From Shigella phage Sf11 SMD-2017, in the sequence record MF158038: DNA of 46,454 nucleotides; one strand, written 5' to 3'. The translations under genes and the position numbers were made by a program. The notes beneath the pieces are model-generated. The model did not search any database. It had not been told where the DNA came from and worked only from the letters and a program-made list of their open reading frames with translations. The first letter of the stretch is position 1. Each line of letters starts with the position of its first letter. This document shows positions 5,223 to 46,454 of this stretch, in pieces.

Positions 5223-5670
5223 TGAACTGCTGGCGATGGAGGATATTCCACGGGATCAGATTGAAGATACCATCAATCTTATTGAAGAGGAGTTTGAAGG
5301 AAAGGCTGAAATGGTCGCTGCTTACATTCGTGAGCTTGAAGCTGATGAAGCTGGACTTAAATCCGAGATTGACCGTCTTTCTGAGCGTAAGCGTGTTTTA
5401 GTTGCTAAGATTGATAACCTTAAAGATTATCTTCGTCAGAACATGATGGCGTCAGGAAAGACAAACATCAAAGGTAAGTTGTTCAGTATCACGCTTGGAA
5501 AACCATCACCAGTTCTTGATGTGTTTGTCCCTGTTGAGCAGCTTCCTGAGCAGTACCGCGTTGTGAAAGTGTCGGCAGATAACGCAGCAATTAAAAATGC
5601 GATAAAAGCCGGGATTGAAATTAATGGTTGCGCCATCACCGACGGCAAACCGAAACTGATCATCAAATAA
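5176..5670 (+). CDS. Siphovirus Gp157-like protein (likely start 5191)
   Basis: About 160-aa coiled-coil-rich protein immediately after Sak4-like ATPase, the typical module arrangement. Confidence 0.55.
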   Translation: MILNIMHLYEITKQLNELLAMEDIPRDQIEDTINLIEEEFEGKAEMVAAYIRELEADEAGLKSEIDRLSERKRVLVAKIDNLKDYLRQNMMASGKTNIKGKLFSITLGKPSPVLDVFVPVEQLPEQYRVVKVSADNAAIKNAIKAGIEINGCAITDGKPKLIIK

Positions 5671-6209
5671 ATCGAGAGGACACAAAAATGGGTTTCTGGA
5701 ATCTTTCTGACGGTAAAGCTGTTGAATCTAAATCTGAATTTGAACTGGGTGGTGGTTTCGAAGTAATTCCTGATGGTAGCCGCGTTCTTGCTGCCGTTGA
5801 AGAATGTAAAGACGACCAGTGGGAAGGTGAGCGATTCTTCAATCTTAAGTGGCGAATCCTTGAGGGTGAGTATAAAAATCGCATCATCTTTCAGAAGCTG
5901 AAGGTATTTAGTTCAAAAGAGAAACAGCGTGATAATGCTATCACTATGCTTGCAGCAATTGACGCAAACGCTGGTGGTAAGCTGATGGCATCAGGGAAAG
6001 AGCCGACTGATTTTGCTATTGCCAGCGCGCTTGCAAATCGCCCGATGATTCTTCTTCTGCGCGTTTGGGAGTCTGAGGATAAGCAAAAAACTGGCAACTA
6101 TGTGGCTGGTGTTTTCAGTCGTCAACAGACAAAAGCAGCGCCTGCTCCTAAGCAATCAGCGCCATCTAACGAGCCGCCGATGGACTTCGACGACGACATT
6201 CCGTTTTAA
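5628..6209 (+). CDS. SSB-like protein carrying a host-type SSB C-terminal acidic tip (PPMDFDDDIPF); likely start ATG 5688
   Basis: C-terminus ...SAPSNEPPMDFDDDIPF matches the conserved E. coli SSB tip; RBS tcgagaggacac upstream of ATG 5688. Confidence 0.7.
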   Translation: MRHHRRQTETDHQINREDTKMGFWNLSDGKAVESKSEFELGGGFEVIPDGSRVLAAVEECKDDQWEGERFFNLKWRILEGEYKNRIIFQKLKVFSSKEKQRDNAITMLAAIDANAGGKLMASGKEPTDFAIASALANRPMILLLRVWESEDKQKTGNYVAGVFSRQQTKAAPAPKQSAPSNEPPMDFDDDIPF

Positions 6210-6220
6210 TTTAGATTGTA

Positions 6221-8131
6221 ATGACAGGGCCATTCGTGGCCCTTTTTATTCGAGAGGACACTATGAAAGTACAGCTTAGAACATACCAACAAGAAGCTGT
6301 TGATTCTGTTATAGGTCATATTCGTTCAAGCGTTTCATCGTGCATGATCATCTTGCCTACAGGGTCTGGAAAAAGCGTTGTTGTTGCATCAATCGCCGAT
6401 TGGGTATTTAAAAATACTGGAAAGCGCGTTCTGTGTGTTGCACCAACAAGCGAGTTAGTTGTTCAAAACAGGCAGCGGTATCTTTCTCTAACAGGAGAGC
6501 CAGCCAGCATGTTCAGTGCAAAGGCTGGACCAAAAAACCTGCGTCATCCGGTGGTGTTTGGTTCACCAGTTACAATCAAGAACTCAATAGAGATGTTTGG
6601 TGATAAGTATGGCGCTGTCATTATTGATGAATGTGATGGAATAACACCAACCATTAAATTTATTATTAATGAAATGAAGCGTCGCAATCCAAAACTGCGT
6701 GTTATTGGAATGACCGCTACTCCTTATCGCCTTGGAACTGGATACATCTACAAAGAGCACTATTTAGACGGTCCCACAGATGAAGAAACGGCAATTGACC
6801 CATATTACGACAAAGTCGTTTATGAGCTTGAGGCTAAATTCCTCATTGAACACGGATACCTTACGCCGCCAGTTACAGAGCCTGTTTTTGATGAATATGA
6901 TACGTCTTGTCTTGAAAAGGATAAGTTGGGTCGTTACACGACAGCTTCAGTTGAAAAGGCAATGGTTGGAAAAGGAAGGAAAACATCACGTATTGTTGAA
7001 GATATTATCCGTCGCTCTGTTAATCGGCGCGGAACGATGATTTTTGCCAGCACCAAGAAACACGCTATGGAGATAATGGAGTCACTTCCTCCCGGTTCTT
7101 ATAGTTATGTTTTTGGTGATATGCCGACAGCGGAACGCAATAAGGCAATATCAGACTTCAAGACGCAAAAAGTTAAATACATCGTCAACCAGAATATCCT
7201 TACTGTAGGGGTTGATGTTCCTCATTGTGATCACATAGCAGTAATGAGAGCCACAGAATCACCAAGGCTCTACCAGCAAATAATTGGCAGGGGGACGCGT
7301 CTTTATGAAGGAAAGGAAGATTTTCTTGTCAGCGATTACGCAGGCAACATCCAGCGCCACTTTTCCGAGACTGGGGACTTGTTTACTCCAGAAATAAAAG
7401 CAACAAGGAAAAAACCATCAGTGCCAATGGATGTAAAATGCCCGTTATGTGGTTTTATCAATGAATTTGGCGTGCGCCCAAATCCGGAAAATCTGGAAGT
7501 TGACAAAGAAGGTTACTGGCTTGATTTGGCTGGTGACAGAGTGATGATTGATATTTTTGATAAGTCAGGTGAAAAAATTGGAAGCAAGCCTATGCCTGCT
7601 CATTTTGGCAGAAGATGTAAAAACTACGTTATGCAAGGTCCACTAAGGGAAATGCACAGATGTACTTATAAATGGTCGGTAAAAGAGTGTCCTGATTGTG
7701 GGTTTGAAAATGATATAGCAGCAAGAAATTGCACATCATGCGGAGCTGAAATCATTGACCCCAATCAAAAGCTAAAGGAAGAAGCTGACAGGCTTGATTC
7801 TTCTCCTTATGCAACCAAGCAATCAAGCGTAACTATGATGAACATTATGAAGCATTACGTTTCAAGTGGCGAGGATTTGGTGCACGTAAAATTTGCTATT
7901 GAACAGAAGCCATTTTTTGTTAGCAAGTTCTACAATCCAAACTCTGAGAAGGAATGGATGAAGAAGGAGTGGGAAGAGTTTTGCGGTAAGTGCTTTGGTG
8001 AATCCGATATGTCAATTGATGATGCAATAGCAAAAAGAGATGAAGCTGTCGCACCATCGGTGATCATGTTCAGAAGAGATAAAGGAAGTAAATATTTCAA
8101 CGTTAAAGGCATGTATTGGGGGGTATTATGA
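6221..8131 (+). CDS. SF2 (DEAD/DEAH-type) helicase with C-terminal zinc ribbons; likely start ATG 6263
   Basis: Motifs LPTGSGKS (Walker A), IIDECD (DExD), TATP, QQIIGRGTR; three CxxC...CxxC pairs in the C-terminal region. Confidence 0.8.
   Translation: MTGPFVALFIREDTMKVQLRTYQQEAVDSVIGHIRSSVSSCMIILPTGSGKSVVVASIADWVFKNTGKRVLCVAPTSELVVQNRQRYLSLTGEPASMFSAKAGPKNLRHPVVFGSPVTIKNSIEMFGDKYGAVIIDECDGITPTIKFIINEMKRRNPKLRVIGMTATPYRLGTGYIYKEHYLDGPTDEETAIDPYYDKVVYELEAKFLIEHGYLTPPVTEPVFDEYDTSCLEKDKLGRYTTASVEKAMVGKGRKTSRIVEDIIRRSVNRRGTMIFASTKKHAMEIMESLPPGSYSYVFGDMPTAERNKAISDFKTQKVKYIVNQNILTVGVDVPHCDHIAVMRATESPRLYQQIIGRGTRLYEGKEDFLVSDYAGNIQRHFSETGDLFTPEIKATRKKPSVPMDVKCPLCGFINEFGVRPNPENLEVDKEGYWLDLAGDRVMIDIFDKSGEKIGSKPMPAHFGRRCKNYVMQGPLREMHRCTYKWSVKECPDCGFENDIAARNCTSCGAEIIDPNQKLKEEADRLDSSPYATKQSSVTMMNIMKHYVSSGEDLVHVKFAIEQKPFFVSKFYNPNSEKEWMKKEWEEFCGKCFGESDMSIDDAIAKRDEAVAPSVIMFRRDKGSKYFNVKGMYWGVL
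6226..6250 (+). terminator. Intrinsic terminator (gggccattcgtggccc + T-run)
   Basis: GC hairpin followed by tttttatt. Confidence 0.6.
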
Positions 8132-8583
8132 TTTTTCCAGAAGGCATTAAGGTATATGGAAATTTAGATTACAGGAACAAAAAGTGTCCGTCAGAAGATG
8201 CTGAACTGGAGACTTTTGTCAATCAGATAAGGAAGCTATATCCTGACTTTGCAAGAGTTATGATTCATGTGCCAAATGAAGGAAAGCGTAAAGGGTATGA
8301 AGTTGAAAACCTGAAGAAAAAAGGCTCGCTAAACTTCGGGGCGTCAGACATCATTATCATCGGAAAGCAATCATTCGTTATGGAGATGAAGAGAATGGAT
8401 CATACTTTATCAAAATGGCAGCCCGGTCAAATGGCATACCTTAAGGCAGCAAAAGAATTAGGTTCCTTCGCGTGTGTATGCCTTGGTTGGGAAGCTGCAA
8501 TAATGGCATTTAACGACTGGAGAGCAATGAATTACCCAAACTATAAAAAAACATCAGATCCATTGATATTTGATGGTTTTTAA
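8116..8583 (+). CDS. VRR-NUC domain nuclease
   Basis: Motifs HVPNEGKRKG, GASDIIIIGK and EMK consistent with the VRR-NUC / PD-(D/E)xK fold. Confidence 0.7.
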   Translation: MGGIMIFPEGIKVYGNLDYRNKKCPSEDAELETFVNQIRKLYPDFARVMIHVPNEGKRKGYEVENLKKKGSLNFGASDIIIIGKQSFVMEMKRMDHTLSKWQPGQMAYLKAAKELGSFACVCLGWEAAIMAFNDWRAMNYPNYKKTSDPLIFDGF

Positions 8584-8700
8584 CAGCCACGCCAGCAATC
8601 AGGCCAACAACCGCAACGACAACAACAGCCGCCAAAACAACAAGTCCCACAAGGAGGCAATGAGCCCCCAATGGACTTCGACGACGACATTCCGTTCTGA
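8584..8700 (+). other. In-frame extension after the VRR-NUC TAA stop that encodes a Q/P-rich linker plus SSB C-terminal tip (…GGNEPPMDFDDDIPF*)
   Basis: Direct translation of 8584..8700 in the VRR-NUC frame; 26 nt (atggacttcgacgacgacattccgtt) identical to the 3' end of the SSB-like gene at 6184-6209. Confidence 0.6.
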
Positions 8701-23302: not shown

Positions 23303-23349
23303 TTTAAATCTCCTGTTGTTTGATTAGCATGATTTTAGCATATTCCTGT

Positions 23350-23378
23350 TGACGTAGATTGAGAGGGTGTTTATAGTA
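23350..23378 (+). promoter_or_regulatory. Island promoter TTGACG-N17-TATAGT with TGACGTAGA operator-like motifs
   Basis: ttgacg 23350-23355, tatagt 23373-23378; motif gacgtagattgag inside the spacer and gacgtagaaac at 23382. Confidence 0.6.
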
Positions 23379-25453: not shown

Positions 25454-25456
25454 CAA

Positions 25457-25485
25457 TAAAAAGCCCCTTTCGGGGCTTTTCTTTT
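25457..25485. terminator. Bidirectional terminator (agcccctttcggggct), near-identical to the one at 19276
   Basis: Same hairpin sequence as at 19280-19295, flanked by A/T runs. Confidence 0.7.
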
Positions 25486-25486
25486 A

Positions 25487-26347
25487 TCACGCCAGATAAG
25501 TATCATCCTCAAACCATGAAACGTAAGCATTGATATTCTGCGCCGCAGTATCCAGTGATGTTATGCGAAGCAGATACGTTGTGTTTGGTGCCATGATTAT
25601 TTGCTCGCCTAATCTAGCCTGCGAGTTACCCTGCCCCTGATTCGATGCGTTACCCTCGCTATATGTTGCTGCGACCGTCAGCTGTCCAATACTTGTGATC
25701 GTAGAGCCAGTAAGAAGCTGTGCCGTAGCTGCTTGTGGCGTTATATCGTTTGGGTTGTTAATCTCTGCCGCCGCACCTCCAGTGGCAACTGCACCGCGAT
25801 AGATTGATGCAACAACACCTTTCCCTGTGTAACCAATAATGCGCTGGTTGAATATCACCTGCTTTGTTCCGGTGATAAAAATGCTGTCAAGGTTTGAGCT
25901 GCCAGCGACATCAGTTACTCTGCGCGACGCAGTGAACAGCTTACCTTGTTTGTTGGCGCGCTCAATATATGACTGAGTGGTAATATCGCTTAACGCCACG
26001 TCAGGCTGAAGGTTTACCACCGATTGCGGAGACACGCCAGCTCGCCACACCGAAACGCGCAGCGAACTTACCGCTGCTGGCAATTCAGTTTTTATTATCT
26101 TCAGGCGCAATGCCACGCCGTAATAATTATTATTGTTGACGTCAATCCAGTAATCACCGGACTCAAATGGCGACACCTTCACGGATACGGTTCCGCTAAC
26201 CAGTGGCGTGTATGCACCAGATGAATCAAGTGGCATCACGTTAACCTGTAGTGCCGTCCAGTCAGCAGACATCAGTTCATCAAGCATTACCTCGCCGTCA
26301 TCACGCGTGGTGAATATGTCGTATCTTACAGCCATAGGAACCCCCAA
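25487..26347 (-). CDS. Hypothetical virion-associated protein (possible decoration/fibre)
   Basis: 286 aa Gly/Thr/Ser/Ala-rich ORF downstream of capsid gene. Confidence 0.4.
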   Translation of the reverse strand: MGVPMAVRYDIFTTRDDGEVMLDELMSADWTALQVNVMPLDSSGAYTPLVSGTVSVKVSPFESGDYWIDVNNNNYYGVALRLKIIKTELPAAVSSLRVSVWRAGVSPQSVVNLQPDVALSDITTQSYIERANKQGKLFTASRRVTDVAGSSNLDSIFITGTKQVIFNQRIIGYTGKGVVASIYRGAVATGGAAAEINNPNDITPQAATAQLLTGSTITSIGQLTVAATYSEGNASNQGQGNSQARLGEQIIMAPNTTYLLRITSLDTAAQNINAYVSWFEDDTYLA

Positions 26348-34836: not shown

Positions 34837-35023
34837 ATGAGAAGCAGCGGAGATTGTGCTTCTTCAGAAGTGTTGATTTGCGGAACACGTCAATGCCAAT
34901 GTCGGTGGCAAGACCGGTAAGCGCATCAAACTGATTCTGTGTTGTCTCGGTAGTGATGTAAGGCGATATATCCACGGCATCGGTGATTCCAAGCATCTCT
35001 TTGCCGCGTTGCGATGGTTTCAT
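34745..35023 (-). CDS. Hypothetical protein upstream of the lysis cassette
   Basis: ORF track; no clear TM segment, so not called a holin. Confidence 0.4.
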   Translation of the reverse strand: MKPSQRGKEMLGITDAVDISPYITTETTQNQFDALTGLATDIGIDVFRKSTLLKKHNLRCFSCAVAHFIVWGEKTGDKAKRKAEKEVYWYGY

Positions 35024-35067
35024 TCTGCCTCCTGTTCAAATAATGATTAATTCTATCACAATGGCTA

Positions 35068-35096
35068 TTGACGTAGATTGAGTGGTGGTGCATAGT
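35068..35096 (+). promoter_or_regulatory. Island promoter TTGACG-N17-CATAGT with TGACGTAGATTGAG motif
   Basis: ttgacg 35068-35073, catagt 35091-35096; spacer nearly identical to that of the promoter at 23350. Confidence 0.55.
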
Positions 35097-35115
35097 ATCT
35101 ACATCAAATAGAGAG

Positions 35116-35316
35116 GTGGTAAACATGAGTGCACTTGAGTTGGTTTCTCGTTCGATAATTACGCTGTGGGTTATTTCTTTGGCTTTCGGTCTATGTTCAT
35201 TCTATACGCCATGGGCGTGGCAAAGAAAAAACTACTTCGCCATAATTTACGGCCCATTCTGTGTTATGAGCATGATTGCGGCGCTATTCTTCGTTATTGT
35301 TGGAGTATGGTCATGA
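35116..35316 (+). CDS. Small membrane protein (two TM helices)
   Basis: 66 aa, two hydrophobic segments; RBS agagaggtggtaaacATG. Confidence 0.5.
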   Translation: MVNMSALELVSRSIITLWVISLAFGLCSFYTPWAWQRKNYFAIIYGPFCVMSMIAALFFVIVGVWS

Positions 35317-35455
35317 TGGTAATGATCAAATTCAAAGAAAACGGACGTTGCGGAGTATTCGACCTTGAGCAAATCAAAATCCGTCCGTGCGGGAAGGTGG
35401 TTGCGCCATTTGGTTTGGTGCAAATGCGCGAGTGTGAGATTATGGAGTACATCAA

Positions 35456-35752
35456 ATGACTGGCGGCAATAATCTGTATGCAGAGCGGGATATAGATATC
35501 CTTGATGAAACTGGTGGCTTTTATTCCCAGCACGTTAGCGCCATGACCTCTGAATCATTACACTCAAAATCAGCTATTGCTGCTGAGTTAGCATATCGCG
35601 ACATGCTTATTAACGAGTTAGTTATTGCCGTGCAACAGGTAATTGAATGCTACGATTCTGCGGGTGGCAAAGTCTGGACAACATCAAGCAAGCGTCGTGC
35701 TCTGGATAATGCTCGTGCGGCGGTTAATAAAGCATTGGGAGAAACAAAATGA
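35456..35752 (+). CDS. Hypothetical protein
   Basis: ORF track; ATGA coupling. Confidence 0.45.
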   Translation: MTGGNNLYAERDIDILDETGGFYSQHVSAMTSESLHSKSAIAAELAYRDMLINELVIAVQQVIECYDSAGGKVWTTSSKRRALDNARAAVNKALGETK

Positions 35753-36234
35753 AACAATGCGATCTTTTCCGTGTTCTTAGTTATAACCCTGAATCTGGTG
35801 AATTCACGTGGATTAAATCAAGAAGACATGGGTTTAGCGGTCGAAAGGCTGGGTCGGTAAATGGGAAAGGGTACATACAGATCTGCATTGATGGAAAGCT
35901 TTACCTTGCGCACAGGCTTGCTCTTCTATACGTGACAGGAGAGATGCCAAAGGAGGTGGACCATATTAACAGGGTGAGAGATGACAATAGATTATGCAAC
36001 TTAAGGCCATGCACTTCATCTGAAAATAAGCACAACAAGGATATCACATCCAGAAACAAAACAGGGATAAAGGGCGTCAGCTGGTATCCTGCCGGAAATT
36101 CATGGAGAGTAAGGATATGCGTAAATAAAACACAGATTCATCTGGGCTACTACGAAGACATTGAGCTGGCAGAGCTTGTGTCACAAGAGGCGAGAATTAA
36201 ATACGCAGGAGATTTTAATTATGAAGCTTATTGA
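35749..36234 (+). CDS. HNH homing endonuclease with AP2-like DNA-binding domain
   Basis: HRLALLY...EVDHINRVRDDNRLCNLR...ENKHN HNH motif; GIKGVSWYPAGNSWRVRI AP2-like motif; paralogue of 42818..43348. Confidence 0.75.
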   Translation: MKQCDLFRVLSYNPESGEFTWIKSRRHGFSGRKAGSVNGKGYIQICIDGKLYLAHRLALLYVTGEMPKEVDHINRVRDDNRLCNLRPCTSSENKHNKDITSRNKTGIKGVSWYPAGNSWRVRICVNKTQIHLGYYEDIELAELVSQEARIKYAGDFNYEAY

Positions 36235-37060
36235 TTTACTGGTTAAAGAATTGCCTAAGCGTGGCGGGTGGCCTGATGGTGCTGAGTACGCAAGGGTAAC
36301 AGGATTTGGTGGTGAGAAAATTTTGGTAGATTTTCTTTTTCCAGAAGCATACAACAAGCTCAGCTACTCTATTGGAATTATTGCATGTCACCTTGTTGAT
36401 GCAGGTGCGGATGTTGATTATCACATGATACGTCGCGATTCGTATGAATCCGCACTCGCGGCATCGAAAAAGCCAGCATGGAACGGCGAGGGCCTGCCGC
36501 CTGTTGGGTGCGAGTGCGAGGTGTCAGTGGATGGCGGCCGCTCATGGTGTACATACAGAGCAGAGAAAATTTTGGTAGATTTTCTTTTTCCAGAAGCATA
36601 CAACAAGCTCAGCTACTCTATTGGAATTATTGCATGTCACCTTGTTGATGCAGGTGCGGATGTTGATTATCACATGATACGTCGCGATTCGTATGAATCC
36701 GCACTCGCGGCATCGAAAAAGCCAGCATGGAACGGCGAGGGCCTGCCGCCTGTTGGGTGCGAGTGCGAGGTGTCAGTGGATGGCGGCCGCTCATGGTGTA
36801 CATACAGAGCGATAAACGAGAAAAATGGAGTTCGGCTAATTGAAATTGGTAACTTAACGGAAGAATTTCAAAATAACAACTGGATTTTCCGCCCACTCCG
36901 CACTGAAGCGGAAAGGAAGCGTGAAGCTGCGGCGAAAGAAATGGCTCGCCACGCCAACGAAGATGCACATCGCAAATTCAATGCTGGATTAAGAAATTGC
37001 CTGTCAATTTACGACGCAATCGCAGCAGGCAAGATTCCTGGCGTGAAACTGGAGGATTGA
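36161..37060 (+). CDS. Hypothetical protein containing a perfect 83-aa tandem duplication (likely start ATG 36221)
   Basis: Protein segment EKILVDFLFPEAYNK...GGRSWCTYRA occurs twice consecutively; DNA 36314-36561 equals 36563-36810. Confidence 0.55.
   Translation: MSWQSLCHKRRELNTQEILIMKLIDLLVKELPKRGGWPDGAEYARVTGFGGEKILVDFLFPEAYNKLSYSIGIIACHLVDAGADVDYHMIRRDSYESALAASKKPAWNGEGLPPVGCECEVSVDGGRSWCTYRAEKILVDFLFPEAYNKLSYSIGIIACHLVDAGADVDYHMIRRDSYESALAASKKPAWNGEGLPPVGCECEVSVDGGRSWCTYRAINEKNGVRLIEIGNLTEEFQNNNWIFRPLRTEAERKREAAAKEMARHANEDAHRKFNAGLRNCLSIYDAIAAGKIPGVKLED
36314..36811 (+). repeat. Perfect 2 x 249-bp in-frame tandem duplication
   Basis: Direct comparison: period 249 bp, 248/248 identical positions in the core. 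Confidence 0.9.
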
Positions 37061-37265
37061 TATGTATAAAATGAGCAAGAAAAGCCTCATTGGCAGGATT
37101 GCACTTCTTCCTGTGTTTTTACCGGTCATCGCACTTGAATTGATTTTAAATAAGGCTGACGACTGGAGTTTTTCTATCAGAAGGCTAAGAAGGCGAATGG
37201 AAAAGTTTGCTGATGATAAGTTTTCATTGGCAAACGATAAAAGACAAACATTTAAACCCAAGCCC

Positions 37266-39612
<2,347 letters not shown>

Positions 39613-46119: not shown

Positions 46120-46454
46120 TTTTTTTGCTCGGGAAGCGAACACCTAAATTACTGATTTTGCTTAATATTGGCTTCCCGAGAATTTTTCTCATTTACCTAT
46201 ATACTATTGAAAGATAAAGGAAAAATTAATCTCTGAAATATTAATACGCTTTTTCGGGAAGCGTGTCAACTCAGGAGGTAAAGTATGTAGGTTGCTATTA
46301 AGTGTTTCTTCGTGTGCTTGCTGAATTATAGAAAAGTTGATATATTAAATTGAGTTTACTGTTGATTGATTGTCTGGAGGTTGTCATGTACAGGTTTGGT
46401 AGCGCAATGGCTGAGGTGTATGAGTTTGTTAGCGGGATGTCGATTGGAGAGGTG
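46120..46454. repeat. Right copy of 335-bp exact direct terminal repeat
   Basis: Identical to 1..335. Confidence 0.9.

Follow-up and report, generated by a model that had tools for sequence, protein, structure and literature searches.

A perfect in-frame tandem repeat of 83 codons within a phrog_7798 gene of Shigella phage Sf11 SMD-2017

Spontaneous tandem duplications in phage genomes are known from the classical duplication mutants of T4 rII and lambda, and gene "accordion" amplifications under defence pressure are known from poxvirus K3L and from T4 tifA versus toxIN. We studied the genome sequence of Shigella phage Sf11 SMD-2017 (sequence record MF158038; the whole stretch of 46,454 nucleotides is called the window here), in which one gene presents an internal direct repeat of 83 codons. 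The T4 and lambda duplications resemble this one in several respects: they are head-to-tail repeats, from a few hundred bp up to several kb long, ascribed to illegitimate exchange with little or no homology at the junction, tolerated within the packaging limit and unstable as the copies can recombine. They were, however, genetically selected and usually comprised whole genes or fusions, whereas the Sf11 repeat is in-frame and intragenic, belongs to a natural sequence and is known from assembled sequence alone. The accordion amplifications share with Sf11 the recent tandem copies of zero divergence in a viral accessory locus, but they involve whole genes whose dosage is raised; in Sf11 the repeated segment is an internal piece of 83 codons with breakpoints inside predicted domains. 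Within the same protein family (see below), the members P0170, P0178 and P0155 also contain tandem pieces of ~85-100 aa with the rest of the protein intact; their copies are 35-41% identical and start at a module boundary (MKLIDLLV...), whereas in Sf11 the identity is 100% and the repeated segment begins at residue 32, which the predicted fold places in the turn that links the first strand to the second. An exact direct repeat is also what an untrimmed circular-assembly overlap leaves behind, and the window ends appear to carry such an overlap (335 bp); in contrast, the two copies of the 249-bp repeat adjoin each other away from the ends, they are identical over one base less than the period, and neither flank explains the junction base. 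Set against these systems, the Sf11 repeat is probably an ordinary kind of spontaneous mutation or, with less likelihood, an assembly error, and not a new biological system.

The window corresponded to the complete genome of a Skatevirus-like siphophage. In the phage collection, the top match was Escherichia phage ECO111 5-P (OR844768), to which 68% of a 22-kb query aligned at ~91% identity, followed by Salmonella and Escherichia phages of the Skatevirus type with genomes of 44.9-47.6 kb. Complete E. coli genomes, searched with megablast, contained no match, and the sequence is thus not a resident prophage there. An exact terminal direct repeat of 335 bp (1-335 = 46120-46454) left a unique genome of 46,119 bp, and these 46.1 kb fall within the size range of the relatives. 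The right terminal copy ends inside a small ORF (start at ~46386, equivalent to 267); the repeat suggests an untrimmed overlap of a circular or permuted assembly rather than defined physical ends. In another part of the window (8116-8700), a 155-aa ORF (8116-8583) ends in ...PLIFDGF followed by TAA. Past 8583 the same frame stays open for 38 codons, with no start codon before an internal Met, and reads QPRQQSGQQPQRQQQPPKQQVPQGGNEPPMDFDDDIPF followed by a stop. This extension consists of a Q/P-rich linker and an acidic tail of the SSB type, which recurs identically at the end of the ORF at 5628-6209, and it could represent read-through, a sequencing error or a gene remnant.

The gene carrying the repeat belongs to a short operon of the + strand, flanked on one side by lysis genes and on the other by head-morphogenesis/portal genes, both groups leftward. 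A sigma-70-like promoter candidate, recognized by its match to the consensus only (35068-35096, + strand; TTGACG-17-CATAGT), heads the operon, and a terminator-like hairpin (37260-37280, + strand) ends it. A 33-nt element, CTnTTGACGTAGATTGAG...ATAGTA, is repeated at 23346-23378 and 35065-35097, at the heads of two + strand blocks, and with its sigma-70-like -35/-10 pair it is probably a shared promoter. Another repeated element of the window is the hairpin AAAGCCCCTTTCGGGGCTTTT, present at 19272-19306 and 25455-25489 and, in a weaker form, at 13813-13847; the three look like intrinsic terminators of one family. Downstream of the duplicated gene, the ATG of a small gene of 89 aa (phrog_20630; 37062-37331, + strand) is positioned 1 nt past the stop. 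The sequence there reads GGATTGATATG, and with this spacing the two genes may be translationally coupled.

The duplicated gene itself (36221-37060, + strand) starts with a plausible ATG at 36221, ends with the stop codon 37058-37060 and encodes 279 aa (196 aa minus one copy). Tandem Repeats Finder reported one long array in the window, at 36314-36810, with a period of 249, 2.0 copies, 100% matches and a score of 994. A base-by-base check located the period-249 identity exactly at 36314-36561 (copy 1) against 36563-36810 (copy 2), both in the + strand, i.e., 248 nt at 100%, a match that cannot have a chance origin. The copies are adjacent, direct and head to tail, with 1 nt between them and no unrelated spacer. 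Position 36314 is the first base of codon 32, hence the repeat unit comprises codons 32-114, of which copy 1 as delimited here lacks the last base; its final Ala codon is GCA in copy 1 and GCG in copy 2, so that the 83-aa peptide EKILVDF...WCTYRA is repeated exactly. Because the period of 249 nt amounts to 83 codons, the frame is maintained, with the same stop codon and the same short distance to the start of the next gene, and the ORF runs uninterrupted from 36221 to 37060. Both methods confirmed what the sequence-only reading had claimed about adjacent identical copies that maintain the frame and give an exact 83-aa repeat. The identity over 248 bp also stood, but the clean layout of 249 + 249 did not: the structure is 248 + 1 + 248, with one odd base. 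A template/variable pair of a diversity-generating retroelement was rejected as a candidate, because the copies are in tandem and show zero differences where adenine differences would be expected.

The odd base is an A at 36562 (+ strand), the third base of the Ala codon GCA, and it is templated by neither flank of the Sf11 genome, since the left flank has T (36313) and the right flank has G (36811). The junction string reads ...ACATACAGAGC-A-GAGAAAATTTTGG.... At the right flank, G occupies the corresponding position in all five aligned relatives (AGAGC-G-ATAAAC). At the left flank, the third base of the Gly codon is polymorphic, being T in the window, A in the related locus L009 and G in L008. 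Given this variation among relatives, the junction A could derive from an ancestral GGA with a later silent change at 36313; a one-base filler and an error are its other possible origins. The only sequence common to both breakpoint regions is the 7-mer GAGAAAA, which is out of register by 7 nt; had the join used it, the period would be 255, the junction would differ and GATAAAC would be retained. Three readings of the junction fit the sequence alike: a 248-nt duplication with a 2-nt GA microhomology and a filler of 1 nt; a 249-nt duplication that took place when codon 31 was still GGA, the state of L009, and then a silent A>T at 36313; or a 244-nt duplication mediated by GAG, with a 5-nt CAGAG stutter. 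Depending on the reading, the homology at the junction is 0-3 nt, and all three would imply illegitimate recombination or template switching, not homologous exchange. Short quasi-palindromes found at both breakpoints (36315-36336 and 36788-36811) are weak (73% complementary), and no weight was placed on them.

A search of 5.8 billion proteins retrieved 3505 homologues of the gene product, and the best 120 of the 3505 were all 178-212 aa long. The corresponding genes of OR844768, PQ465216 (196 aa) and BS5 (210 aa) contain one copy each. Proteins P0001-P0007, which share both the left and the right alleles with the Sf11 gene, read through the two breakpoints unduplicated: ...TGFGGEKILVDF... at the left one and ...WCTYRAINEKNG... 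(...CTYRAINEKNG...) at the right one. The DNA of L009, L008, L010 and L001 was likewise continuous across whichever breakpoints aligned. The 33-nt junction string had no match in viral_contigs, metagenome_contigs and genome_contigs, and when the 279-aa product and the proteins of three neighbours were looked up as exact sequences, the HNH protein (see below) alone was on record, so that no second assembly of Sf11 turned up for comparison. Comparison with related phages, by which the sequence-only reading had proposed to look for single-copy versions, found them in all the listed homologues, with both breakpoints read through in close relatives, and the Sf11 duplication is unique among the listed relatives.

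A single-copy reconstruction of the protein matched phrog_7798, of unknown function, along its whole length (E 5.3e-69, residues 1-196 against profile positions 1-221 of 221); in Pfam and NCBIfam neither the protein nor its longer relatives had a significant match. The phrog_7798-type family comprises at least 3505 clusters at 90% identity. Its alignment is mosaic, with four conserved blocks (1-22, 73-100, 141-153 and 179-196) around three variable cassettes that combine in many ways. The Sf11 gene is itself a mosaic at the DNA level: the 5' part is nearest to L009 (82-92%), and over approximately codons 100-150 the identity is highest with L010 (100%, and 95-98% beyond). Both copies of the duplicated unit contain this mosaic joint, which is therefore older than the duplication. 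Long members occur in the family, 15 of the 150 best 50%-identity representatives having at least 260 aa. Smith-Waterman comparisons with shuffling controls revealed two tandem N modules in P0170 and three in P0178 (35-36% identity between the copies that align at full length), and two copies of an inserted "WIxWGGGxCPV...DIIAYRL" module in P0155 (41% identity). As these old repeats and long members show, the family tolerates module multiplication and has fixed it historically. The repeats of P0170, P0178 and P0155 respect module boundaries and that of Sf11 does not; a natural phrog_7798 repeat-domain architecture was discarded as an explanation for Sf11, because its copies span residues 32-114, cut the N module and the beta-barrel, and are 100% rather than 35-41% identical. 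Another relative, P0240, has 3718 aa and 11 matches to the small beta-barrel region. A homologue with 43-48% identity, Seszw_64 of phage seszw, is missing almost entirely (a 526-bp deletion) from seszw_30L, a viable mutant of reduced genome that originates from the CiPGr study (PMC9825161), so by analogy the gene appears to be dispensable in the laboratory.

The protein structure was predicted with AlphaFold2 for the single-copy homologue P0001, 82% identical to the reconstruction, using a 120-sequence alignment (mean pLDDT 78.7). The model presented an N module at residues 1-82 (three strands preceded and followed by a helix), a conserved linker rich in Gly and Pro, a small barrel of five strands (98-142) and a helical hairpin (146-183). 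Residues 32-114 begin in the turn after the first strand and finish inside the second barrel strand of this model, so both breakpoints are predicted to cut inside domains, i.e., the N-terminal alpha/beta module and the small beta-barrel. The second copy of the N module is without residues 1-31, which hold the most conserved motif of the family. The model of the doubled protein was confident at 1-103 and 181-279 and had pLDDT <50 at 106-155 and 165-180, although the low confidence at 106-180 may partly reflect the alignment, in which the homologues cover one copy only. Single versus doubled prediction, a check suggested by the sequence-only reading, thus retained one intact copy of each domain; in the modelled doubled protein these would be joined by ~75-83 extra residues, predicted at low confidence and probably poorly ordered.

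Directly upstream of the duplicated gene, as had been claimed from the sequence, we found a free-standing HNH endonuclease gene of 161 aa (35749-36234, + strand; Pfam HNH_3, E 3.3e-12; phrog_99, E 2.9e-66), whose product also had an AP2 match below cut-off. The gene is inserted precisely between two overlapping genes: it overlaps the stop of the upstream gene by 4 nt and the start of the duplicated gene by 14 nt. An identical 161-aa HNH protein was present at the same site in at least seven other metagenomic phage contigs with differing flanking alleles or genes, and there the gene downstream of it, where complete, is single copy and encodes 200-209 aa. L009 also has the HNH gene, followed by a gene of 194 aa; it is absent from L001, L002, L003, L008 and L010. 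An HNH domain and presence/absence polymorphism at one fixed site are the features by which a homing endonuclease is recognized, and this gene shows both. In blastn alignments of the window with L013-L018, a block of high identity (97-98%) amid diverged or unalignable flanks runs from 35666 to 36274-36288, and Bas80 matches 36100-36274 at 96%. The block (35666-36288, + strand) takes in ~83 nt upstream and ~40-55 nt downstream of the HNH gene, and judging from its conservation it is a mobile cassette whose short flanks were co-converted. On the right it stops 26-40 nt before the left end of the duplication at 36314. Other genes of this kind were observed around the locus: L013 and L017 carry a second HNH gene downstream of the phrog_7798 gene, and L008, L010, L013 and L015 carry a T5orf172/MUG113/DUF723 gene beside a Mu-F-like gene, both of them absent in the window. 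By its gene content, the locus (homologous to window positions 35000-38300) is a hot spot for different homing-type genes. To call the context recombination-prone was fair, as the locus is highly mosaic and different homing-endonuclease genes flank it in different relatives.

The alternatives named beforehand, a very recent duplication or an assembly artefact, agree with the comparative evidence (homologues in single copy, breakpoints read through, zero divergence), and the evidence as a whole leans to a real junction. We regard it as probable that the repeat is a genuine, very recent intragenic tandem duplication, a tolerated spontaneous mutation in a dispensable, hypermosaic accessory gene. 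During phage DNA replication, template switching, or illegitimate recombination of sister or concatemeric molecules, would have joined 36561/36562 back to 36314, with almost no homology (0-3 nt) and one odd base, and codons 32-114 of a 196-aa accessory gene would have been copied again. The extra junction base needs a further assumption, namely that a filler nucleotide was added, that a silent substitution followed, or that the base is wrong. As the gene would be non-essential and the family tolerates changes in length and module number, the duplication would probably be neutral or mildly deleterious and not yet lost. We infer the molecular mechanism, the neutrality and the presence of the duplication in the real phage population; if real, it may be fixed or may occur in a subpopulation of the stock only. 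An artefact of assembly or consensus, in which the assembler, the polishing or a manual joining of contigs made a second copy from a single true one, seems unlikely but deserves some weight. The copies are perfectly identical, the duplication was found in this sequence alone, an error at a contig end might account for the odd junction base, and the contig looks raw and uncurated, with its untrimmed terminal overlap ending inside a small ORF. The duplication, however, is ~10 kb from either contig end, and the 335-bp overlap still present at these ends shows that no cutting and re-joining took place where the duplication lies. We rejected an untrimmed circular overlap at this position because the repeat is internal, the terminal overlap is a separate one, and such an overlap predicts an identity as long as the period, against the observed 248 nt for 249. 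A false cycle in a de Bruijn graph was rejected as well: it needs a common k-mer with k of at least ~21, and as the breakpoints share only the 7 nt of GAGAAAA, in the wrong register (period 255), a k-mer graph could not have invented the junction, whose string must have been present in the data. Short-read assemblers, moreover, usually collapse tandem repeats and do not expand them, and for an artefact an in-frame outcome would be a one-in-three coincidence.

If the duplication is real, the neighbouring HNH gene might have triggered it, by an aberrant repair of a double-strand break near the homing site in which the segment was copied twice. We give this possibility somewhat less credit than an artefact. 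The mobility of the cassette, shown by the identical protein at the same site among different flanking genes and by the closest relative without HNH, would favour it, as would the short distance from the conserved block to the left breakpoint and the other endonuclease genes that relatives carry around the homologue of the duplicated gene. But every other recovered genome with this HNH has the gene in single copy, and repair from a donor copy predicts donor- and recipient-type differences between the copies, none of which was seen. A genome carrying an HNH gene is normally not a substrate of its own homing enzyme, and nearness alone says little in a gene of 0.8 kb; the HNH gene is linked to the duplication circumstantially only. 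More doubtful still is that the duplication was adaptive, i.e., that a longer inter-domain region or a doubled binding surface was selected, for instance against a host defence, or that we see an early stage of the module multiplication present in older family members. The reading frame was kept, and the family is hypermosaic, combines conserved linkers with variable cassettes, and includes members with two to three N modules or a doubled inserted module; a perfect repeat of 248 bp is, besides, quickly lost by homologous recombination unless recent or selected. Against selection, the breakpoints cut both predicted domains and frame neither, the second N module lacks its most conserved motif, the extra segment is predicted at low confidence, there is no other occurrence among the listed matches, and the homologue of the gene is dispensable. 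The most elaborate version, a selected functional expansion caught at time zero as the first step of module multiplication, possibly combining HNH break repair with host-defence pressure, we hold to be the least probable. The spontaneous, tolerated duplication thus remains the preferred reading.

If the duplication is real, it provides a natural snapshot of an in-frame internal duplication at zero divergence in a phage accessory gene, an example with almost no junction homology, a one-base filler and no regard for domain boundaries, which would be useful although unsurprising. It merits mention in the annotation of the genome. The locus holds more interesting biology than the duplication itself: a very large, uncharacterised, extremely mosaic and, by analogy, dispensable family, whose gene sits between homing-endonuclease insertion sites in Skatevirus-like phages.
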